NCBI GenBank assembly: GCA_964559435.1
Contig: CAZLHI010000004.1
Span: 23,408-87,407, forward strand
Direction of reading: 5' to 3'
Length of the DNA stretch: 64,000 bases
Origin: an uncultured bacterium
GTDB taxonomy: Bacteria > Armatimonadota > Hebobacteria > Hebobacterales > Hebobacteraceae
The notes beneath the pieces were generated by a model. That model saw only the letters and a program-made list of their open reading frames with translations. It had not been told where the DNA came from and made no database searches. Both the position numbers and the translations under genes were made by a program. This document shows positions 3,571-25,403 of this stretch, piece after piece. Every line of letters begins with the position of its first letter. The first letter of the stretch is position 1.

Positions 3571-6429
3571 TCAGCCACGCCAGCCGAGAAAGGCGCGGGC
3601 GATGTAGACTGCCATCTGATCCCGAGTGACCGGCCAAGTCGGCCGGTACAAACCGTCAGGATAGCCCTCGATAACAGGGTGCTCGTCAGAGAGAAACTCC
3701 ACGTGGCGATAGCACCAGTAGCCAGAGGGCACGTCGTCGAAGGTGGGGGCGGGCGGGGGCTCGTAGTCCGCGAGCCCTTCCTCCCCGCGGGGCACGACGA
3801 CGGCGCGCGCGATGAAGACGGCCATCTGCCCACGGGTGACATCCCATTCGGGGTGGTAGTTCTGCTCGCCATAGCCTTCCACGATGTTCTCGGCCGCCAC
3901 CCCTTCGATGCTCTCGTAGGCCCAGTGGTCGAGCGGCACGTCCGGGAAGGTGGGCTCATCCGGCGGGGCGGGCACGCCCCCGATGGCCCGGGCGATGAAC
4001 ACCGCCATCTGATCGCGGGTGACGACCACGTTCGGCCGATAATAGCCGTTGGGGTAGCCCTCGACGATGTAGCCAGCCCAGCAGTTGAGGATGGGGGCGT
4101 AGGCCCAGTGGTCCTCCGGGACATCGGGGAAGGTCTTGAGCTGATAGTGGGCGGTCACAGTGTGGTCTTCGTCCATCGTGACAGCGATTGAGGTGGCGAA
4201 ACCAGACTGCTCCCCTGGCTGGGTTACCCCATCGACGTCCCAGTGCGTGAAGAAGTGGAAGGTGGCACGGGCAGGCATGCTGATGGTGACCGTCTCATCG
4301 TAGTCGTAGGTGAAGGCGCAGTCGGTCATGCCCCAGTCGCGCCCGTCGAGGTCCGCGGGCGTGACATAGACCTCCGTGTAGGAGACCGGCGTGGCGCGCA
4401 CCGTGAGCGTGCGCGTGTCCGGGTGCAGCCTCCATTCGTGGGCGCCGCGGTCGGGGGCCGCGCCGGAGGGCACCGTGCCACCCCAGAAGTCGAGGCCGCC
4501 GGCGCCTGGGATGGTCAGGCCGCTGTCAATACACGGGGAGTTGGGCTGGAGCTTGTAGCCGGAGCAGGTGTCGCGACCTATGCCGGCGCCGCCCGGGGCG
4601 GCGAGCAGCGGGTCATCGGTGAGCTTGTGGAGGTCGTCCGGCTCGCCGGGAGGGTGGTTGCCGAAGAAGACGTTGGAGTCGAAGAGGTTGTTGGTGCTCA
4701 AGGCGAAGATGTAGTCTCCGCTCCCGAGGTCGTAGAAGATGTTGTTGTAGAAGCGGGTGTCGTCGGCGTACCCGCCCCAGGAGGTGTGGATGATGGGATC
4801 GACCGACATGCCCTCGCCGATGTAGATCGTGTTGTTGTAGACAGCGGTGTTGGTGGTGGGGCCGGCGATATGGAAAGCGCGGGTGAGGTCGTTCTGGCTG
4901 ATGTTGTAGCGGACGATGGTGCCGTCGTTGAAGCCGCTATAGGTGCCGTTGGCGCAGATGAGGCAGAACCCGCCCTCATTGTCGTGGCTGTAGTTGTATT
5001 GGATGATGGTGTTGTGAGAGAACCAGTCGCTGTCGAACCCCTCGCCGTCGTTGGTGCCCCGGGTGAGATAGGCCTCGTTGTATTGGATGACGGCGTTATC
5101 GCAGTCCCACGGCCAGATGGCCACGCAGTAGCGGCCGGAGCGCATGTTGCAGTCCTTGGCGACGTTGTACTCGACGAGGGGGCCGTCGCAGACCGTCGGC
5201 ACGATGCCGTCCCCCCCGATGTCGTCCACGGAGTTGCTCATGATTTCAACGTTGATGCTCGGCACCCACGAGCCGAGGATGCCGGCGGGAAGATTGCGGT
5301 CCCACCACCAGGAGGAGAGCCAGATGCCGGAGCGGTCCACGCCGCGCACGGTGCAGCCGCCGACGAAGACGCCGTTCCACCAGGTCTCCTTCGACAGCCC
5401 TCGGATGTCGAAGATGATGCCGCCGTTGGCCTTGTGGGAGTCATCGAGGAGGCCGTTGACGTCGTGCACGTCGAGGCCGCTCAGGTTTATGCTGTGCAGG
5501 GCTCCGGCGTCCTCACCGATCACCCAGGCGCCGTAACGAGCGCGAGGGAAAGTTCCGTAGTTGATCAGCTCGAGGCCCCACACCATCCAGTATTCCTGGT
5601 TGAAGAGGCGAAACGGAGCGGTGACGGTCCCGCCGCCGTCGATGAGTGGCAAGGGGCCGCTCCAGTCGCTCTGCAGGATAATCTGATTCCCCGCAGCGCC
5701 TGAGCCCATCGGATCGAGCTGTCCGTTCCACACGCACCCTGACTTGAGGACGATGCGGTCGCCGGGAGCGAATACGACGCTGTTAACCTTGTCGAGTGTG
5801 CGCCACGCCGATTCCGGACTGGTACCCGTGCTGGCGTCATCGCCGTCGATCGAATCAACGTAGTAAGTGGTGTTGCCCGGCGAGAACTCGAGATCGGGTC
5901 CGACGAAGGAGAAGTCGTCGACATAGAGGTAGCCAGGCCCATCGTTCTTCCAGGCAAAGACGCGCATCCAGTCGATGGTGTCGGAGGTCGTGAACTCGAC
6001 TTCTTTGTACGTGTAGACGCTCTCGGTGAACTCGACGCCAGGGGTGAAGCGGTTGCCGTAGATATCGTAGTATTCGACGCCGACCCAACCGACCTCGCCG
6101 GCGACACTGACCATCCCCCACGCGCCCACTCTGTAGGTGGTGTTGGCTCTCGGCTTCCCGTGCGTCTGGGCGCGGCCACCGGTTTCGGGACCGATTTTGA
6201 GAGACCAAGAGCCGGTGTGCGGGTTCTCCGGCACAGCCTGGGCGCTGGGGTAGGGCTCCGCCACGCCCCACGAGGCATAGCCTCCCCAGCCGTCATTACG
6301 GCTCTCGAAGCCGGGGTTGGCAAGCAGGTTGCCTGACCAAGCATGAGCCGGAGAGAGCGAAGCAACCAGCGACAGCAACGCTGCAGCGACGCCGAGCGAC
6401 ACGCGCAGCCAGTCGACTCGACGGAGCAT
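3571..6429 (-). CDS. Large secreted SLH-domain cell-surface protein. Domain order: signal peptide, CBM4/9-like module, right-handed parallel beta-helix (pectate-lyase-like), beta-sandwich, then three C-terminal S-layer homology repeats.
   Basis: Signal peptide MLRRVDWLRVSLGVAAALLSLVASLSPAHA. CBM4_9-like block NLLANPGFE..GW. Repetitive beta-helix block NNTIYIGEG...YNNIFYDL...NVFFGN. C-terminal SLH repeats FPDVP.DHWAY..I...V.GYPDG.YRP...VTRDQMAVFIARA, present three times. The start was chosen at the internal ATG at 6429; the track start is 6468. Confidence 0.85.
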   Translation of the reverse strand: MLRRVDWLRVSLGVAAALLSLVASLSPAHAWSGNLLANPGFESRNDGWGGYASWGVAEPYPSAQAVPENPHTGSWSLKIGPETGGRAQTHGKPRANTTYRVGAWGMVSVAGEVGWVGVEYYDIYGNRFTPGVEFTESVYTYKEVEFTTSDTIDWMRVFAWKNDGPGYLYVDDFSFVGPDLEFSPGNTTYYVDSIDGDDASTGTSPESAWRTLDKVNSVVFAPGDRIVLKSGCVWNGQLDPMGSGAAGNQIILQSDWSGPLPLIDGGGTVTAPFRLFNQEYWMVWGLELINYGTFPRARYGAWVIGEDAGALHSINLSGLDVHDVNGLLDDSHKANGGIIFDIRGLSKETWWNGVFVGGCTVRGVDRSGIWLSSWWWDRNLPAGILGSWVPSINVEIMSNSVDDIGGDGIVPTVCDGPLVEYNVAKDCNMRSGRYCVAIWPWDCDNAVIQYNEAYLTRGTNDGEGFDSDWFSHNTIIQYNYSHDNEGGFCLICANGTYSGFNDGTIVRYNISQNDLTRAFHIAGPTTNTAVYNNTIYIGEGMSVDPIIHTSWGGYADDTRFYNNIFYDLGSGDYIFALSTNNLFDSNVFFGNHPPGEPDDLHKLTDDPLLAAPGGAGIGRDTCSGYKLQPNSPCIDSGLTIPGAGGLDFWGGTVPSGAAPDRGAHEWRLHPDTRTLTVRATPVSYTEVYVTPADLDGRDWGMTDCAFTYDYDETVTISMPARATFHFFTHWDVDGVTQPGEQSGFATSIAVTMDEDHTVTAHYQLKTFPDVPEDHWAYAPILNCWAGYIVEGYPNGYYRPNVVVTRDQMAVFIARAIGGVPAPPDEPTFPDVPLDHWAYESIEGVAAENIVEGYGEQNYHPEWDVTRGQMAVFIARAVVVPRGEEGLADYEPPPAPTFDDVPSGYWCYRHVEFLSDEHPVIEGYPDGLYRPTWPVTRDQMAVYIARAFLGWRG

Positions 6430-15771: not shown

Positions 15772-16677
15772 ATGGAGCAAGCGACTCGCAGGGCTCGGTT
15801 TGGCGTCGATTCGGTAAGACGCGCGAAGCTCTACGACTTCCAGTTGTCCCCGGCAACACCCTTGTATGCTGACAGCAATCTCTTTCCCGAGGAGACACCA
15901 TTGGAGATCGAGGTGCACGCGGGCATCGAGGTGGGAGTCCTGCTCGCCGGCTCAGAGGAGCACCAGCTCGACGATTGGGTGTGCCGCGTGGTACCCGGAG
16001 ACGTCTGGCTCACCGCCACCTCGGAGCCGCATGGATGGCGGGTCGCAGCACCGAACACCGAGGACGTGATCCTCATCTTCCTGCCCGAGTTCCTAGGGGA
16101 AGAACAGCTCGGCAACTATTCCTGGCTCGATCTTTTTGCGCTTCCGGCCAACCAGAGGCCGCGAGTGACGACGCCCGAGATGCGAGAGCGCGTGATGGCA
16201 TTGGGGCATGAGCTCCGGCGCGAGGTAGAGGAGCGGCGACCCGGCTGGGAGAGTGCGGTGCGGCTCGGTCTGCTCAGCCTGCTGCTGACGCTGAGCCGCG
16301 AGTGGGAGCCTCCGGCCCAGTCGAGCGTGCGATCTCGCGTCCGGGCGAGCAGCCTTGCTCGGATCATGCCGGCGCTCAACCTAGTTCAGTCGCGCCCGGC
16401 GAGGCGAGTAGCGGTGGCCGAGGCGGCGAGGGCCTGTGGGCTCAGTCGAGCGCAGTTCTGCCTGATCTTCCAGCATGCAGTGGGGATGAGCTTCGGCCGC
16501 TTCTGTCGCCGCTCTCGACTAGGCTATGCGGCGGAGCTTCTGCTTTCCACCGACCTGACGATGGGTGCGATCGCCCAACGTGCGGGCTTCTCGGACAGCA
16601 GCCACATGCACCGCTCGTTCAGCCGCCACTACGGCTGCACGCCGGGGCAGTACAGAGCGCAGAACCGACCCGAGTAG
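15772..16677 (+). CDS. AraC-family transcriptional regulator (N-terminal cupin-like sensing domain plus C-terminal dual HTH). Paralog 1.
   Basis: The C-terminus has the AraC HTH signature ...AAELLLSTDLTMGAIAQRAGFSDSSHMHRSFSRHYGCTPGQYR. RBS GGTGGAG precedes the ATG. It is about 60% identical to the 18214..19119 product. Confidence 0.85.
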   Translation: MEQATRRARFGVDSVRRAKLYDFQLSPATPLYADSNLFPEETPLEIEVHAGIEVGVLLAGSEEHQLDDWVCRVVPGDVWLTATSEPHGWRVAAPNTEDVILIFLPEFLGEEQLGNYSWLDLFALPANQRPRVTTPEMRERVMALGHELRREVEERRPGWESAVRLGLLSLLLTLSREWEPPAQSSVRSRVRASSLARIMPALNLVQSRPARRVAVAEAARACGLSRAQFCLIFQHAVGMSFGRFCRRSRLGYAAELLLSTDLTMGAIAQRAGFSDSSHMHRSFSRHYGCTPGQYRAQNRPE

Positions 16678-16790
16678 CCGCCAGGGATAGTCGCAGAAGA
16701 CGCCATAAGCAGGCGGAGCGCCCGGCCGGGCGCTCCGCTCAACATTCCACCAAGAACGTCTATCTTGCTAGCGCAAGATCTGAACCAGTA

Positions 16791-17837
16791 CTAGTAGAGG
16801 AGCCAGTCGTTGTCGGCCAGGTAGCCCTCGCTCCAGTCGTCGGCCCTGGTCGGTCCCCAGCTAGAAATACCTGTCAGATCCCCCTCGGCGACCTTGTTGA
16901 TCAGGCCTTCCGAGTTGATCCAGGATGCATGCCCGTCGAGGAAGCCGAGGTTGACGCCGCCCAGGTGCCGCGAATACGGCTTGCGTAGATTCGGGTCCTT
17001 CAGGAAGGAGCCGTTGTTCGGCGCCATCAGATACAGCCCGCAGTCGGCCGCCCACGTGCAGATGTCCCAGTCCTGCCAGCCACAGCACGGGTTGCTGCAC
17101 TCCAGTGTGCAGAGGTCTGGATAGGCGGCAAGGCCCACGTTATTGTCCTCAGCGGAGGCGCCAGCATCACCGCAGATGACGTGGTTGACCGGGTCCGGGA
17201 CCTGCACCAGCTTCAGGCCACCCATCCACTGGGTGCCAATGGTCTGGACGAAGGCCTTGTTGACAGCATCCCCGCCATACTCGGCCACGGCGAGCCGGCG
17301 CTGCAGGTACGAGTCTGTGACCTCGCCGCCCCATCCTGGCGGCCAGGACCAGAAGCAGGGGCCAGCGATCCATGTATCGGCATCGGAGGCGCCGGGTCCC
17401 CATTCGGCGTCATAGGCCTGCAGGTAGGTGAACCAGTCAGGCCCGGGCACGATCCAGCTGGCGCCCCCTTCCATCCTGCCACTGGGGCAGCGCCAGACGT
17501 CACGGTTCTTCACGTACTCGTCGAAGATCACCGGATGTCGGAGGTAGGGGTTGCTCTGGAACACACACCAGTCGTCGTAGTCGTCCGGGGCCTTGGTCTC
17601 GTAGTAGTCGTGAATCTCCTGCCTGGTTTCGGTGGGCGGCAGAACGTCGTTGTTGTCCGCCAGGTACATCTGGATTGCCAGCGCAATGTTCTTGACATTG
17701 GACAGGCAGACAGCCTTGCGCGCGGACTCCCGCGCGCGGGCGAACACGGGAAAGACCATAGCGGCCAGGATCCCGATGATCGCGATGACGACCAACAGCT
17801 CAATCAGTGTAAATCCTCGTACTCTCCGCGTACTCAT
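16791..17837 (-). CDS. Prepilin-type N-terminal domain / DUF1559 / H-X9-DG family protein. Paralog 1.
   Basis: N-terminus MSTRRVRGFTLIELLVVIAIIGILAAMVFPVFARARESARKAVCLSNVKNIALA (DUF1559-type). C-terminal H-X9-DG motif HLGGVNLGFLDGH. The start was chosen at the ATG at 17837. Confidence 0.85.
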   Translation of the reverse strand: MSTRRVRGFTLIELLVVIAIIGILAAMVFPVFARARESARKAVCLSNVKNIALAIQMYLADNNDVLPPTETRQEIHDYYETKAPDDYDDWCVFQSNPYLRHPVIFDEYVKNRDVWRCPSGRMEGGASWIVPGPDWFTYLQAYDAEWGPGASDADTWIAGPCFWSWPPGWGGEVTDSYLQRRLAVAEYGGDAVNKAFVQTIGTQWMGGLKLVQVPDPVNHVICGDAGASAEDNNVGLAAYPDLCTLECSNPCCGWQDWDICTWAADCGLYLMAPNNGSFLKDPNLRKPYSRHLGGVNLGFLDGHASWINSEGLINKVAEGDLTGISSWGPTRADDWSEGYLADNDWLLY

Positions 17838-18213: not shown

Positions 18214-19119
18214 ATGGAACAATACCCACCAGTTTCCGGTTTCGCCGTCGCTTCGGACGCTCCTGCCTTGCGTCTCGAGTACGGCCTGTCGCCAGATTCG
18301 CCGCTGTACGCTGACAGCAACGTCTTCGAGGGCGAGGTGCCGCTGGTCGTCCATGTGCACGAAGGCATAGAGTTCGGCATCCTGCTGTCCGGGGAGCAGG
18401 AGCGGCGCTTCGGAGAACTCGTCTGGGAGATTCGCCCAGGGGACGTGTGGCTGTGCGCGACCTGGGAGCCTCACGGCTACCGGATCATCGCGCCGGAAAG
18501 CACCGACGTCGTAGTGATGTTCCTGCCCGAGTTTCTTGGCGAGGAGAGGCTGGGAGAGCTTTCCTGGCTGAGCCTGTTCGCGGCTTCGCCCGCTCGCCGG
18601 CCGCGCGTCACTGAGGACGGCATGCGGGAGCAAATGCTGGCCGTCGGCCGGGAGATGCAGTGCGAAATCAGCGAGAAGCAGCCCGGCTGGCACAGCGCCG
18701 TTCGGCTTGATCTCCTGAGGGCCTTGCTGACGCTCAGCCGAGCCTGGGAGCCCCCGGCTCGGTCCGAAGCGCGGTCTCGAGTGCAGGCAAGCAACCTTCC
18801 CAGAATCATGCCTGCCCTCGTCTTGCTCCACTCGGAACGAGGTCGCCGCGTGGGGCTGGAGGAGGCGGCCAGAAAGTGTGGTCTCGGCAGGGCGCAGTTC
18901 TCCCTGGTGTTCCGGGATACCATGGGCGTGAGCTTCGGCAAGTTCTGCCTGCGATCACGCCTCGGGTTGGTGGCGGAGCTGCTTCTCTCTACGGACTTGC
19001 CCACTCAGTCAATCGCACAGAGAGCCGGCTTCGTGGATGGAAGCCACATGCACAGGGCCTTCGTAGCTCACTATGGATGCACGCCGGGCCAATACAGGGC
19101 CCAGAACCGGTCCGGCTGA
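18214..19119 (+). CDS. AraC-family transcriptional regulator. Paralog 2.
   Basis: Same architecture and C-terminal HTH as paralog 1 (AELLLSTDLPTQSIAQRAGFVDGSHMHRAFVAHYGCTPGQYR). Confidence 0.85.
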   Translation: MEQYPPVSGFAVASDAPALRLEYGLSPDSPLYADSNVFEGEVPLVVHVHEGIEFGILLSGEQERRFGELVWEIRPGDVWLCATWEPHGYRIIAPESTDVVVMFLPEFLGEERLGELSWLSLFAASPARRPRVTEDGMREQMLAVGREMQCEISEKQPGWHSAVRLDLLRALLTLSRAWEPPARSEARSRVQASNLPRIMPALVLLHSERGRRVGLEEAARKCGLGRAQFSLVFRDTMGVSFGKFCLRSRLGLVAELLLSTDLPTQSIAQRAGFVDGSHMHRAFVAHYGCTPGQYRAQNRSG

Positions 19120-20690: not shown

Positions 20691-22410
20691 GCCGCCTGCC
20701 ATGAGCTCAAGACTGCTCCAGCCCGCCGCCCGCCGCGACCGAGATTGGCGTCGTCTTTGCTACCCACTGCTTCTGCTCGCGCTGTGTGCTGTGCTGTTCT
20801 TCTGGCGACTTGGCGTCACTCCGCTCGATGACTTCGACGAGGCCTACTACGCTGAGGCCGCCCGGGAGATGCTCGAGCGCGGCAACCTCGGCACGCCCTA
20901 CTACAACGGGAAACCGTTCCTGCTGAAGCCCATTCTGATCTACTGGCTGATCGCCGGCGCCTTTCGCCTTTTCGGCATCACCGAGTTCGCCGCTCGGTCG
21001 GTGTCAGCCTTTTTCGCCATTGTTATCGTCCTGACCACCTACTGGTTCGCCGCCCGCACACTGAGCATGACCGCCGGCCTGCTGGCAGGGCTCATGCTCG
21101 CCCTCTGCTACTTCTGGATTGACACCGGCCGAGAGGCGATGATAGACATGCCCCTGACCGCCGCGCTCGCCCCGGCCGTCTTCTTCTTCTTCCTCGCCAC
21201 GCGTGCCCCCCCAGATCGCAAGCCCGTTCTCTACCTGGCGGCCTACCCGCTCCTGGGAGTTTCTCTGCTGGCCAAAGGTCCCGTCGCCACGGGTGTGGTG
21301 CTTGTGGGACTCATGGCGTACTTGGCTGGCGCGAGGCGATTGCGAGCGACCCTTGCAGAGGCCCGACTCATCCCAGGGATCGCTCTCATGCTCGCGGTCG
21401 CAGCGCCCTGGTACCTCTACGAGTCCCTCCAACAGCCGGAGTTCATTCGAACATTCCTGATCGGGGAGCACTTCGGCCACTTGCACGGGGAGCTGGCGCG
21501 CGATGAACCCTGGTGGGGACACCTGAAGAACCTCCTGATCGGCTTCTACCCCTGGGCGGCGTTCGTGCCCGCCGCCTTCGCACACGCGTTCCGGCAAGAA
21601 AGAGAGAGCGTTCTCCGATTTGCCGCCTGGTGGGCGCTCGTCGTCATCGTTGCCTTCTCCTTCGCAGGAGCCAAGCTGCCGCATTATCTCGTCCCCGCTT
21701 TTCCGGCCCTGGCAATTCTCACCTCGGGTTGGTTTGAGGCATGGGTGCTGGGGCGGGCCCCCAGCAGGGCCTTGACAGGACTCGGCGTGACTCTGCTCGC
21801 GCTCATAGGCGCCACTCTCCTCGCTGCGACCGTGATTGCAATCCTCATGCCGTTGCCTCTGCGCGCCCGGCTGGCGGCCAGCTGGGGTTCTTGGACGCCC
21901 GGCGCTGCGCCGGTCGTCATGTTGGCGGCCCTTGCCATCGGGTCAACCGGGGCCGCCGCGGCCGCAGTAGCCGGCCGCCGACGCGCGGTCTTCCCCCTCC
22001 TCGCCGCAGCCGTCGCGCTAGCCGCGGTGGCACACATCGGCTGGTTCAAGCCGCGGCTGGCGCAGATTCAGGCGCAGCCGCGCAAGGAGCTGGCCCAGTT
22101 CGCAGCCACAGCCCTCCCCGAGGAGGAGCCGCTCGGCGTCTACTACGCGAAGCGCAACGCCACCATCTTCTATGCGCGCCGGCCCATCGTGGATCTTGGC
22201 CAATGGGAAGTGGCAGAGCTGACCTGCTTCCTCTCCTCGCCAGCTCCAGCCACGGCTCTGACGCACGCCAAGTTCATCTCCGCCCTGATCCAGGAGGTTC
22301 CCGAACTGCACGTGTGGAGGCGGCGCGGTGACTTCGTCCTGGTCTCCAACCATCCGATTCCCTCCGTTGGGAGCCGTGCGCCCGAGGCCGACTCCCGACG
22401 GCAGCCATGA
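20689..22410 (+). CDS. GT-C fold glycosyltransferase of the ArnT/PMT (GT83/GT39) family, using a polyprenyl-phosphate-sugar donor.
   Basis: 573 aa with about 12 TM. The N-terminal ArnT/PMT block is FDEAYYAEAAREMLERGNLGTPYYNGKPFLLKPILIYWLIAGAFRLFG. The start codon overlaps the divergent GT2-YdjC start within CATG; 20701 is an alternative start. Confidence 0.8.
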   Translation: MPPAMSSRLLQPAARRDRDWRRLCYPLLLLALCAVLFFWRLGVTPLDDFDEAYYAEAAREMLERGNLGTPYYNGKPFLLKPILIYWLIAGAFRLFGITEFAARSVSAFFAIVIVLTTYWFAARTLSMTAGLLAGLMLALCYFWIDTGREAMIDMPLTAALAPAVFFFFLATRAPPDRKPVLYLAAYPLLGVSLLAKGPVATGVVLVGLMAYLAGARRLRATLAEARLIPGIALMLAVAAPWYLYESLQQPEFIRTFLIGEHFGHLHGELARDEPWWGHLKNLLIGFYPWAAFVPAAFAHAFRQERESVLRFAAWWALVVIVAFSFAGAKLPHYLVPAFPALAILTSGWFEAWVLGRAPSRALTGLGVTLLALIGATLLAATVIAILMPLPLRARLAASWGSWTPGAAPVVMLAALAIGSTGAAAAAVAGRRRAVFPLLAAAVALAAVAHIGWFKPRLAQIQAQPRKELAQFAATALPEEEPLGVYYAKRNATIFYARRPIVDLGQWEVAELTCFLSSPAPATALTHAKFISALIQEVPELHVWRRRGDFVLVSNHPIPSVGSRAPEADSRRQP

Positions 22411-22689
22411 CTCGCCTCGAAAGTCGGTGCCCCAGAGGCATGACTGCACGTGGCCCCGCCCCTCCAGCTCACGTACGGCGAGTGCCCCGGGGGAGGCGGC
22501 GCCTCCCCCCAACGCGGGCGGAGCGCCCAAACGGACGCTCCGCCTTAGCACTCCATAGAAAGCCTATCTTGCTAGCGCAAGATCTTAGCCAGTCTTAGCC
22601 GCCAGGCCTACAAGCGCCTTGGCGGGCGCTCCGCCCTTCGAGTCCGCAGAAGGAAAGCGTATCCTGCCAGTGCAGGATCGGAGCCAGTA

Positions 22690-23727
22690 CTAGTAGATCA
22701 GCCAGTTGTTCTCCGCGAGGTAGCCCTCGCTCCAGTCATCGTCCGTCGTCGGTCCCCACGGACCCACGCCCGAGAGATCTTCCTCTTTTATCTTGTTGAG
22801 AACAGTCTGGGAGTTGAACCACTGCGCGTGACCGTCGAGGAAGCCGATGTTTATGCCGCCCAAGTGACGCGCGTACGGCTTCCGTAACTCGGGGTTGGCG
22901 AGGAACGAGCCGTTGTTCGGGGCGCCGTTGTAGAGCCCGCAGTCCACGGCCCAGGTGCAGAGATCCCAGTCATACCAGCCGCAGCACGGGTTGCTGCACT
23001 CCAGGTTGCAGAGGTCCGGGTAGGCCAGGGTTCCCGCACCGAAGTCGTCAACGATGACGCCCGCGTCGCCGCAGACGACAGCGTTGACCGGGTCCGGCAC
23101 CGAGACCAGCTTCAGGCCTGATGCATAGACCGTCCCGATGCTCTGCACGAACGCCTTGTGGGCACCTACGGCGGTCCGCCCCTGCAGGATGGAGTCGGTG
23201 ACCTCACCGCCCCAGCCGCTCGGCCAGATTACACCGCACGGCTTCAGGTCGTAGTCGCCCGTTCCCCAGTCTCCCTCGTTGGCCACCATAAAGCCAAACC
23301 AGTCCGGGATCGGGATGACCCCACCCGCGCCGCCTTCGACCTTGGCGCTCGGGCACCGCCACACGTCGCGGTTCTTGACGTACTCGTCGAGAATCACCGG
23401 TATCCGCAGATACGGGTTCGACTGCCGGGCACGGTGGCAATCTCCGTCTTCGTCCACGTCCCAGCCATCCTCCCTGCCACCTGGTGCCAGGTTGAAGTAG
23501 TCCAGCACTTCCCGCCGGTGCTCTTCGGGCGGAAGTGTGTCGTTGTTGTCCGCCAGATACATCTGAAACGCCAGGGCGATGTTCTTGACATTGGAGAGAC
23601 ACACGGCCTTTCGGGCAGACTCGCGTGCCCTTGCGAAGACCGGGAAGACCATCGCGGCAAGAATCCCGATGATCGCGATCACCACCAACAGCTCAATGAG
23701 CGTGAATCCCTTGCGTCCTCGTAGCAT
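22690..23727 (-). CDS. Prepilin-type N-terminal domain / DUF1559 / H-X9-DG family protein. Paralog 2.
   Basis: N-terminus MLRGRKGFTLIELLVVIAIIGILAAMVFPVFARARESARKAVCLSNVKNIALA. C-terminal motif HLGGINIGFLDGH. Strong RBS GGAGGAGGTG upstream of the ATG at 23727. Confidence 0.85.
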   Translation of the reverse strand: MLRGRKGFTLIELLVVIAIIGILAAMVFPVFARARESARKAVCLSNVKNIALAFQMYLADNNDTLPPEEHRREVLDYFNLAPGGREDGWDVDEDGDCHRARQSNPYLRIPVILDEYVKNRDVWRCPSAKVEGGAGGVIPIPDWFGFMVANEGDWGTGDYDLKPCGVIWPSGWGGEVTDSILQGRTAVGAHKAFVQSIGTVYASGLKLVSVPDPVNAVVCGDAGVIVDDFGAGTLAYPDLCNLECSNPCCGWYDWDLCTWAVDCGLYNGAPNNGSFLANPELRKPYARHLGGINIGFLDGHAQWFNSQTVLNKIKEEDLSGVGPWGPTTDDDWSEGYLAENNWLIY

Positions 23728-24472
23728 GCTAGGTCCTTCACCTCCTCCAGATTGTCACGACCCGAGTAACCCGTTCGGCTGAGTTACCGTTCCGCCAATG
23801 TTATGTCCGCCACCTCCTTTCCGTTTCTCAGCCGGCGCGTTCTTGCGGCACTCCGACAGACTTTGCCGCTATGTGACCCGCGCGTTGTGCGCGTTACCCG
23901 GCATATTCAGTGTACCCAGCCAGGGACTAGAGGCACACCTGTATCACAGACAAGGCGCTCGCCAAGGCTGCGAGCGCCCCATGGATCACGTTCTCTTCGT
24001 TGCCCAGCCGCACGCGCCGCTCCGCCGGGCTCCAGCAGACGCCGCATCGGAGCGAAATCGGAGGGGCCAACACACCGGGCCCGTCGGACGGGCCCTCTGC
24101 CGGCCCAACGCGGGAGACACCAGGACGAACGTATGAATACATGCTTTCTCGCCGGACAGAACTAGACCCTCACACAGCGTCCGGAGAACCGTTCGAATGG
24201 TAACATTTCGCCGCTCATCCGTCAAGAAGCTTTTTTGCCGCGACAACGCCCCAGAGCGCTCGGCGCCGGTCACCGGTGTCAGGGACGAGCGGACCGTCCC
24301 CCATCACGTCAAGCGGTTCCACGGCGACAGCGTGTTGGTGGGAGGCTGCTCTCCCAGCGAAAGGCGGCCGGAGTCGCCCCCCAGAAGGGATGTGCCGGCA
24401 AGGCCGTTGCGGGGTGCCCAACCAAGCGGTTTGCCAGTCAAAGCGGGGTGCGGCGACAATCAAGTCACGGCA

Positions 24473-25096
24473 TCAGTCGGGAGCCCCGGCTTCCAGGGCA
24501 ACGATGCGGCGCGCCACCTCGACGAGCTTGGTGTTCGACCGGCTGCTGGTGCGCTGAAGCCAGCGATAGGCTTCCTGCTCTCCGACGTTCATGTCCCGCA
24601 TGATGATGCCTTTGGCGCGCTCGACCAGCTTGCGGGCGTCCAGAGAGTCCTTCAGGTCGCCGACCTCGCCGCGGAGGGACTGCAGATCCCTGAAGCGGGC
24701 CTGTGCCGTGGCGATGGCGGCTGCCAACCGTTCCCGGGTGATGGGCTTCACGAGGTAGCTGAAAACACCAGCCTCTGCCGCGTCCTCGATAAGTGACTGA
24801 TCTGTGTGGCCGGTGATGATAACGATGGGCACGGAATGCTCACCCAGGATGGACCTGGCCGCTTCGAGACCGTTCAGTTCCGGCATACGGATGTCGAGCA
24901 GGACGAGGTCAGGGCCGGTCTGCGCCGCCATGTCCACCGCCTCTCGGCCATCTCGGGCCTGTGCCACAACCTGGTGGCCGAGGGATTCGGACATGCGGAC
25001 GATTGCCGTCAGGACGGCTTCCTCGTCGTCAGCCACGAGAAGTCTCAGAGTTCCCACGTCGCCCCCTGCGCCACCCGCCCTATTGCCCCCGCTCAC
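24473..25096 (-). CDS. Response regulator with a REC domain and an ANTAR RNA-binding antitermination output domain (AmiR/NasT-like).
   Basis: REC block LLVADDEE...DLVLLDIRMPELNGLEA. ANTAR block ERAKGIIMRDMNVGEQEAYRWLQRTSSRSNTKLVEVARRIV. The true start may be the internal GTG at about 25060 (MGTLRLLVADDE). Confidence 0.85.
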   Translation of the reverse strand: MSGGNRAGGAGGDVGTLRLLVADDEEAVLTAIVRMSESLGHQVVAQARDGREAVDMAAQTGPDLVLLDIRMPELNGLEAARSILGEHSVPIVIITGHTDQSLIEDAAEAGVFSYLVKPITRERLAAAIATAQARFRDLQSLRGEVGDLKDSLDARKLVERAKGIIMRDMNVGEQEAYRWLQRTSSRSNTKLVEVARRIVALEAGAPD

Positions 25097-25403
25097 TTAT
25101 TCCACAAGAAGGACCCTTCTATGTGGCCAGGCATGCTAGCGCACAATTGAGCCTGCGGGGGTGGGCCAGCAGGCCGCGGGAGCACGGGGCCCCGGGAGCA
25201 CGACACAGGACATGTGCCAGGGACTGAGCGTTGGAGGCGCCAAACCATCTCACTCGCTTGCTTGAACTGTGGAATGTCCCCAGTGGGGAGGAGGCAGACC
25301 AGGCGCCCGACTGCGTCCTCGTACCGGTCGGTCCTGAGTTCCACCCACCCCTTCGGCGTGTCAGGGTCCTTCGTCTGCCCGCTCGACGGAGGCTTCTTGG
25401 CAA

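Follow-up and report, generated by a model that had tools for sequence, protein, structure and literature searches.

The 64,000-nucleotide stretch of DNA analyzed here, from an uncultured bacterium of the Hebobacteraceae (Armatimonadota) and referred to in full as the window, contains two paralogous genes of the DUF1559 (H-X9-DG) pseudopilin-like family, each closely followed by a small hairpin in its 3′ untranslated region (3′ UTR). The small hairpin is a real, undescribed but modest 3′-UTR motif, and it is part of a two-hairpin module with a predicted family-specific terminator. In type it is a gene-family-specific structured 3′-UTR motif; 3′-UTR hairpins and tandem 3′ structures are of a familiar kind. 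The element exists at the same site in homologous loci from other genomes, its pairing is conserved, its non-Watson–Crick pairs are biased towards one strand, and it is associated with this gene family. We think it somewhat probable that it is a stem-loop of the gene-sense RNA in a DUF1559 subfamily, forming the proximal half of the module and serving as a cis-acting accessory 3′-end element.

A two-hairpin module downstream of DUF1559 genes

The hairpin sequence ATCTTGCTAGCGCAAGAT occurs exactly at 16762–16779 and 22566–22583, and its variant ATCCTGCCAGTGCAGGAT at 22661–22678. Searching the window for the 18-mer with up to three mismatches yielded two matches, against 0.02 expected from shuffled sequences. 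All three copies form a stem of 7 base pairs (bp) and a loop of 4 nucleotides (nt). The stem holds three to four G-C pairs, and its predicted stability in the gene sense is −8.2 kcal/mol in the paralog 1 and distal copies, whereas the paralog 2 copy reaches −9.7 kcal/mol. The paralog 1 stop codon lies at 16791–16793, so that exactly 11 nt (16780–16790) precede the hairpin, as the original prediction had stated; the spacing after paralog 2 is also 11 nt.

Alignment of the three copies revealed a larger repeated unit of about 90–95 nt, which comprises, in the gene sense, the stop codon, the 11-nt spacer, the small hairpin, a linker of about 20–25 nt and a GC-rich hairpin. Locus 2 contains two such units in tandem, of which the distal one (22517–22597) is complete. 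The extra copy at 22566–22583 had been described earlier as an exact repeat about 95 nt further on; the identity is indeed exact, but the description understates the case, as a whole duplicated or orphan module is present. The GC-rich hairpin of this distal unit, at 22517–22544, is probably the working terminator of paralog 2.

Across the family, the module consists of a spacer, a stem of 7–8 bp with the consensus GAUCYUGC / GCARGAU, a variable loop, a G/U-rich linker of 17–30 nt and, ahead of a U-rich tail, the sequence-conserved GC hairpin CGGAGCGCC...GGCGCUCCG. The spacer shows the recurring pattern ACNNG...AAG and measures 10–12 nt in most homologous modules.

In paralog 1 (16760–16793, minus strand), TAG is found in all three reading frames, as the stop codon, within GCUAG in the loop and within GAUAG after the stem. 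A three-frame stop cassette was rejected as an explanation, the TAG pattern being common in the family and neither universal nor conserved. No complementarity to the hairpin arms was seen, on reading by eye, in the 5′ leaders of either paralog.

Conservation of pairing on the gene-sense strand

Between the hairpins that follow the two window paralogs, a T-A pair is changed to C-G. As predicted, the change affects both arms: the two positions pair with each other and pairing is kept, and the other two differences lie in the loop. Within the window alone the case for selection is weak, since the UTRs of the two paralogs, 76% identical over 42 nt, are no better conserved than the coding sequence; this single compensated pair is thus no more than suggestive, and it is the homologous loci of other genomes that decide the matter. 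These were sampled as 80 metagenomic loci, with encoded proteins 54–80% identical, and as four loci (among them L205, L206 and L207) from three named Armatimonadota genomes.

Pair counts for the small stem were taken from a MAFFT alignment of 19 whole modules. Here, 94% of cells pair and four of the seven pairs have changed on both sides, with similar results on another alignment. The covariation score was 0.296, compared with 0.195 ± 0.025 for shuffles (none of 500 reached the observed value) and 0.04–0.16 with slid partners; in a biased and related sequence set such shuffle controls overstate significance, and the numbers support the structure rather than serve as probabilities. The pair flagged from the window is UA in nine sequences, CG in eight and UG in two, and never CA. 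At the other changed pairs, A-U switches to G-C or G-U, U-A to C-G, and C-G to U-A. RNAalifold, run on the same 19 modules, predicted exactly the two hairpins unprompted, with compensatory changes in 12 of 21 pairs. The two-sided changes, the covariation score and the RNAalifold prediction thus support the earlier proposal that the stem is kept by selection on pairing. The loops are 3–6 nt long, and in three loci 15–37 nt have been inserted into the loop with the stem kept, which argues against a double-stranded DNA site with fixed spacing.

The same prediction held that the palindrome would work on either strand, and in this respect it was not borne out. The orientation of the small hairpin relative to the gene is constant and its flanks and loop are asymmetric. 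G-U pairs, which can form only in the gene sense, outnumber A-C combinations in the small stem by 6 to 1, and the T-rich tail of the module lies in the gene sense.

Distribution of the small hairpin

The small hairpin, defined by the core CYTGY/RCARG, is present in about 22 of 74 distinct family 3′ ends (~30%), mostly 10–12 nt after the stop codon. Its carriers fall patchily into at least six separate clades of the protein tree, and the terminator motif is nearly universal. The exact version of the hairpin found in the window also occurs in one metagenomic locus (L022). Named genomes add three cases, namely the two DUF1559 genes of L205, and L089 (Candidatus Hebobacterum abditum); a G-C variant is found in L207.

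We searched both strands with a covariance model, R1, built from 17 hairpins together with 3–4 flanking bases. In 428 kb of loci plus window and 92 kb of named genomes, matches with E<0.01 lie just downstream of family genes, with the gene-sense match the best, in all but two cases. One exception (L030, 2461–2486) lies behind a truncated DUF1559 pseudogene in which HLGGVNLGFLDGH is still encoded; the other (L031, 6732–6757) follows an unrelated gene of 748 amino acids (aa) and retains a relic spacer and stop codon as well as the GC terminator. Modules can outlast their genes, as in the pseudogene region L030 2200–2530 and in L031 6707–6800, the latter module now sitting 25 nt after the unrelated gene. 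Within the window, a scan with filters off recovered only the three known copies, the next best match scoring 13.8 bits. These match positions bear out the suggestion that the element is specific to DUF1559 3′ ends, and the random scatter expected of a generic repeat was not seen in the ~520 kb of loci, window and named-genome sequence. A dispersed palindrome of the repetitive extragenic palindrome (REP) or bacterial interspersed mosaic element (BIME) type was consequently rejected for these 428 kb plus 92 kb, where R1, run on both strands, matched nothing but DUF1559 3′ ends and a single orphan module.

A scan of public genomes with the pattern GATCNTGCN{3,6}GCANGATN{12,40}GGAGCGCC returned at least 120 matches, nearly all of them chance occurrences in unrelated phyla. 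Among the matches listed, four had the second terminator arm and only L089 was a real module.

A proximal hairpin of any sequence in every family UTR was considered and rejected as a rule, since UTRs of non-carriers, folded from stop codon to terminator, gave a mean z of −0.40 (p=0.06). In about one third of non-carriers, folding is nonetheless stronger than in shuffled sequences by over one standard deviation. Nine non-carriers (L004, L006, L012, L015, L019, L024, L028, L063 and L204) have an unrelated hairpin of 6–12 bp located 6–13 nt after the stop codon, examples being GCCGGU-AUG-ACCGGC and GAGAGGCC-UCG-GGCCUCUC.

The distal GC hairpin as a likely family-specific terminator

The GC motif was defined as GGAGCGCC-N2-14-GGCGCTCC, allowing each arm a single mismatch, located 20–110 nt after a stop codon. 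It is present in 59 fetched loci, even where the remaining UTR cannot be aligned. In a census of non-overlapping long open reading frames (ORFs), the motif follows 39 of 52 distinct family genes, as opposed to 11 of 223 other ORFs. Ten of these eleven are convergent neighbors that read the same palindrome, and the eleventh is an orphan module. In the gene-called Armatimonadota loci, a clean copy follows seven of eight family genes, and a scan of four of these loci found none after any non-family gene.

In the 19 aligned modules, 97.8% of cells in the GC stem are paired and six of 12 pairs have changed on both sides; in the terminator core, G-U exceeds A-C by 9 to 4. In the gene sense, the 12 nt that follow the stem contain on average 4.2 T, compared with 3.2 A before the stem (p=0.003). 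At least five T occur in the 12 nt past the stem in half of 58 copies in the gene sense and in 16% on the other strand; the tail is only moderately U-rich. The hairpin thus has the features of a Rho-independent terminator, namely an 11–12 bp G+C-rich stem, a short loop, a stability of −26 kcal/mol and a U-rich tail, and is likely to be the intrinsic terminator of the family genes. Although hairpin and tail fit the canonical class, the sequence of the stem is conserved across the family and across genomes, unlike that of ordinary terminators; a terminator with a stem sequence specific to one gene family is unusual. One ortholog, in L206 (11084–11160), has a terminator in which the order of the shared core is swapped between the arms (GGCGAGGCGCUC-CUUGU-GAGCGCCUCGCC), with UUUUUU behind it.

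Evolution of the module

Among carrier loci, pairwise identity is 69% over the first 80 nt of the UTR and 63% over the last 60 nt of the coding sequence, with a shuffled background of about 59%. The nearest orthologs of paralog 1 (78–80% protein identity; L004–L006 and L204) carry a different proximal hairpin, GAGGCC-UCG-GGCCUC, which indicates that paralog 1 acquired its present module secondarily.

The tandem paralogs of L205 (10001–11120 and 12270–13420) encode proteins that are 66% identical, whereas their modules are ~96% identical from spacer to terminator end, loop and linker included, and their first 180 coding nt are 94% identical. Such near-identical ends around a variable core point to concerted evolution acting on the gene ends. 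One terminator pair differs between the two L205 modules, having been swapped from A-U to G-C on both arms.

Between the paralog 2 ortholog and the gene that comes next, where the window has just its orphan module (22500–22600), L205 (11040–13334) has a second DUF1559 gene, and L206 (11514–13028) and L207 (4032–5588) have a sulfatase gene. The window orphan could be what is left of a lost gene, or else the product of a tandem duplication of the module.

Proposed function and alternative explanations

Judging from the arrangement of the module, we infer that transcription would read past the small hairpin and end at the distal GC hairpin. The small hairpin would begin just outside the footprint of a terminating ribosome and hence remain folded. 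In cis, it could act as a ribonuclease barrier or processing determinant, as a dock for an RNA-binding protein, or as both, and the outcome would be a stability or expression tuned for a subset of the paralog family. The modules would be inherited with their genes, exchanged or homogenized between paralogs, and survive as orphans after gene loss. That both stems are so strongly conserved in sequence may point to a factor that recognizes them.

Several observations weigh against this cis-acting role. Three of the seven stem pairs stay unchanged in 18 of the 19 sequences, more conservation than a purely structural role needs, and the sequences used for pair counts are related and were partly chosen for forming the hairpin. 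The L205 modules, set beside their more divergent proteins, show that gene conversion contributes to module similarity besides selection. Spacing is exceptional in L205 (17 and 21 nt) and in the L031 orphan (~25 nt). About 70% of family 3′ ends lack the small hairpin and the non-carriers have no general folding tendency, from which it follows that the hairpin is dispensable.

Some of these observations would also be expected if the module were a passenger, that is, an ancestral 3′ UTR copied along with its genes, kept similar by gene conversion, and given its symmetry by template-switch correction of DNA. The equal divergence of UTR and coding sequence in the window, the patchy distribution, the near-identical modules and 5′ ends that flank a diverged center in L205, and the other hairpin in the closest orthologs of paralog 1, which indicates that the module of paralog 1 was swapped in rather than conserved in place, are all consistent with such an origin. 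We nevertheless consider it unlikely, as the same stem recurs in at least six clades, many metagenomes and three named genomes, beside coding sequence at background similarity; compensatory changes affect four different pairs; loops diverge freely while stems are kept; and a gene-sense wobble bias is not expected from correction at the DNA level. The module could also give rise to a trans-acting small RNA (sRNA), released from the 3′ UTR by mRNA cleavage or an internal promoter, in which the first hairpin, a seed in the linker and the terminator would together allow pairing with other transcripts. Known 3′-UTR-derived sRNAs have a 5′ hairpin, an unpaired stretch and a strong terminator with a U tail, an architecture matched by the module with its 17–30 nt G/U-rich linker. 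Intact orphan modules without a gene (window 22517–22597 and L031 6722–6800) and the identical linker of both L205 modules also speak for an sRNA. On the other hand, conservation resides in the stems and not in the proposed seed, the linker being poorly conserved between genomes; no promoter, processing site or candidate target was identified; and many paralog-specific versions would coexist in one cell. An sRNA therefore seems quite unlikely to us.

Two further explanations place the function in the DNA or in termination itself. The palindrome, with its conserved half-sites that overlap GATC, might be the operator of a dimeric protein or a recombination or homology signal at the 3′ boundary of a variable pilin-like cassette. 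The L205 genes, in which similar 5′ ends and 3′ modules bracket a variable center, and the occurrence of orphan and swapped modules would suit a boundary signal. A DNA-level site is nonetheless very improbable: the half-sites stand 3 to 6 nt and as much as 37 nt apart, which a fixed dimer site would not allow, double substitutions preserve complementarity rather than sequence, and the G-U bias affects one strand only. Moreover, synonymous differences separate the 5′ coding ends in the window (81% identity), which shows that they have undergone no recent conversion, and no recombinase gene is consistently nearby. As to termination, the original prediction had named a terminator among the likely roles of the small hairpin, and in a milder form it would be a weak Rho-independent terminator or pause site that acts in tandem with the GC hairpin. 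It directly follows the stop codon, and a moderately T-rich stretch starts 3–4 nt past the stem in the three window copies. However, its stem is weak (−8 to −10 kcal/mol), the downstream sequence starts with AG or GC and is G/U-mixed in most of 24 modules, so that no U-tract abuts the stem, the terminator scan did not call it, and the far stronger −26 kcal/mol hairpin with its T-rich tail follows 20–25 nt downstream. The terminator role did not hold up for the small hairpin, and we see only a very slight chance that it acts as a weak terminator or pause site. Weighing these alternatives, we continue to favor the accessory RNA element acting in cis.

Comparison with known elements

Rfam 15 gave no match at gathering thresholds across the whole window, and only matches with chance-level E-values at both loci. 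A literature search on DUF1559 / H-X9-DG returned nothing on 3′ elements of DUF1559 genes.

Several known classes were considered and rejected. The Response_reg-ANTAR gene upstream of paralog 2 prompted a comparison with targets of ANTAR regulators, which consist of two tandem hairpins with hexaloops bearing A1 and G4, the second overlapping a terminator. Here the loops are 3–6 nt without conserved A1/G4, and the small hairpin does not overlap the terminator. Bacterial selenocysteine insertion sequence (SECIS) elements and other recoding hairpins lie about 11 nt beyond an in-frame UGA or read-through stop, and the frame runs on to a defined stop. Most family genes stop at UAG and some at UAA or UGA, the conserved protein terminates at this codon, and with a spacer of variable length (10–12 nt) the reading frame is not kept. 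A dimeric operator was set aside given loops of 3, 4, 5 or 6 nt, or up to 15–37 nt, and two-sided changes that keep pairing. Integron attC sites have R''/L''-L'/R' core sites (GTTRRRY), form cassette arrays and neighbor intI; the modules contain no core-site motif, each of the dispersed genes has a leader of its own, and the neighborhoods contain no integrase. An uptake-sequence-like motif was rejected as well, the 12-mer not being over-represented (seven near-matches in the 64 kb window, five of them inside modules).

The closest likenesses are partial. Hairpins of papA in E. coli and similar pilin genes are single, operon-specific and intercistronic, have no sequence conserved among dozens of paralogs, and are thought to act on mRNA 3′-end stability and subunit dosage. 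Like the small hairpin, they are RNA hairpins placed directly 3′ of a structural gene of the pilin type; the small hairpin differs in being sequence-conserved, optional, paired with a conserved terminator, and placed after monocistronic-looking paralogs across the phylum. REP/BIME elements are short imperfect palindromes at gene 3′ ends that can stabilize the upstream mRNA and are present in hundreds of copies regardless of the gene. The 3′-end palindromes, tandem occurrence and within-genome homogenization are reminiscent of the module, whereas in ~520 kb the small hairpin occurs only after DUF1559-family genes, a family pseudogene and in one orphan module. The module architecture taken alone is compatible with the class of 3′-UTR-derived sRNAs, its linker being weakly conserved between genomes: like CpxQ, SroC and DapZ, it has a 5′ hairpin, a single-stranded stretch and an intrinsic terminator just after the stop codon, and unlike them it is conserved in the stems rather than in a seed. 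In Neisseria, pilin loci have the Sma/Cla 3′ repeat, and inverted DNA-uptake sequences double as terminators. Conserved DNA directly 3′ of pilin-type paralogs is common to both systems; in the loci studied here no silent-cassette organization was seen, and where bases have changed it is the pairing that has been kept, not the sequence.

Genes and genomic context

The coordinates of the module parts and of the two genes are given in Table 1. Both paralogs have the prepilin N-terminal methylation motif, the DUF1559 domain (Pfam SBP_bac_10) and H-X9-DG near the C-terminus, and their DNA is 71–85% identical over the whole length. The exact paralog 1 protein is also encoded on the ENA contig ZHAO22-1_SAMN13740703_METAG-scaffold_21. 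The window derives from a metagenomic scaffold of 176 kb. The nearest named homologs are from Armatimonadota, and 2025 proteins match a single query at E<=1e-30.

Table 1. Features of the two DUF1559 loci in the window (sequences in the gene sense)
Feature	Position	Strand	Details
Small hairpin, copy 1	16762..16779	-	AUCUUGC-GCUA-GCAAGAU; R1 28.3 bits, E=1.6e-5, minus strand only; present in centroid fold
Spacer between stop codon and small hairpin	16780..16790	-	11 nt; UACUGGUUCAG
Linker between hairpins	16739..16761	-	Unpaired in centroid fold; loosely conserved and G/U-rich in homologs
GC-rich hairpin	16713..16738	-	GCGGAGCGCCC-GGCC-GGGCGCUCCGC; −26.3 kcal/mol; shared with convergent AraC gene
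Paralog 1, DUF1559 / H-X9-DG pseudopilin-like gene	16791..17837	-	348 aa counted from ATG; Pfam N_methyl + SBP_bac_10 (DUF1559)
Paralog 1 stop codon	16791-16793	-	TAG; from translation
Small hairpin, locus 2 proximal copy	22661..22678	-	AUCCUGC-ACUG-GCAGGAU; 11 nt after stop; R1 24.8 bits
Degenerate GC hairpin, locus 2 proximal module	22611..22636	-	AGCGCC/GGCGCU core, no T tail; −14.1 kcal/mol for a 32-nt stretch running slightly past the coordinates
Relic stop codon and spacer heading the distal module	22584..22597	-	UAAGACUGGCUAAG, resembles UAGUACUGGCUCCG; from alignment, repeat family D7
Small hairpin, distal (orphan) copy	22566..22583	-	Identical to copy 1; R1 32.2 bits
Intact GC hairpin, distal module	22517..22544	-	GGCGGAGCGUCC-GUUU-GGGCGCUCCGCC; −26.9 kcal/mol; faces convergent PMT_2 gene
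Paralog 2, DUF1559 / H-X9-DG gene	22690..23727	-	345 aa; stop codon TAG at 22690-22692

Paralog 1 faces a convergent AraC-family gene that ends at 16677, and paralog 2 a convergent PMT_2 glycosyltransferase gene that ends at 22410. Two AraC-family regulator genes of 301 aa each (15772–16677 and 18214–19119) lie on either side of paralog 1, the first converging on its terminator. The loci L205, L206 and L207 are syntenic with the window, sharing a GAF sensor or kinase gene, Response_reg-ANTAR and DUF1559; in L206 and L207 the synteny extends further to PMT_2, GT2-YdjC, AraC and a second DUF1559 gene.

The Response_reg-ANTAR gene is located directly upstream of the paralog 2 ortholog in the window (~23728–25100, minus strand) and in three named Armatimonadota genomes; the corresponding regions are L001 7323–9255, L205 6858–9358, L206 7521–9426 and L207 1491–2081. 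A GAF sensor or kinase gene adjoins it in three of four of these neighborhoods. The gene is followed by a long leader of about 460–740 nt, with a promoter-like site at 24225–24197. Together, the Response_reg-ANTAR gene and the long leader suggest antitermination control of the paralog 2 ortholog.

TAG is the stop codon of 37 of 52 family genes (71%) and of 83 of 223 other long ORFs (37%) in the window and L004–L083, a crude ORF set that includes some spurious ORFs. Elsewhere in the window, at 3592–4064, three direct repeats of ~80 nt (family D4), 65–75% identical and spaced by 183–210 nt, probably encode a repeated protein domain.

Implications for the DUF1559 family

Among the paralog families of Armatimonadota, Planctomycetota and related bacteria, that of the DUF1559 / H-X9-DG proteins is one of the largest. 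The finding overturns nothing established. The module is a candidate cis-regulatory RNA motif for Rfam-type curation, and it marks the 3′ ends of DUF1559 genes as well as decayed or deleted copies. A family-specific 3′-end module with a conserved terminator stem implies a shared post-transcriptional handling of DUF1559 genes, and the module provides a concrete, mutable element with which such handling can be tested. More speculatively, and we regard this as quite unlikely, the module, with both its stems conserved in sequence, may be an address tag of the family, read by an RNA-binding factor or turned into a processed sRNA that co-ordinates the paralogs, or it may form, with the near-identical 5′ coding end, a homology boundary for cassette-like exchange of the variable gene core between paralogs, similar to pilin variation systems. 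If true, either would be the first functional handle on a very large, unexplained family.

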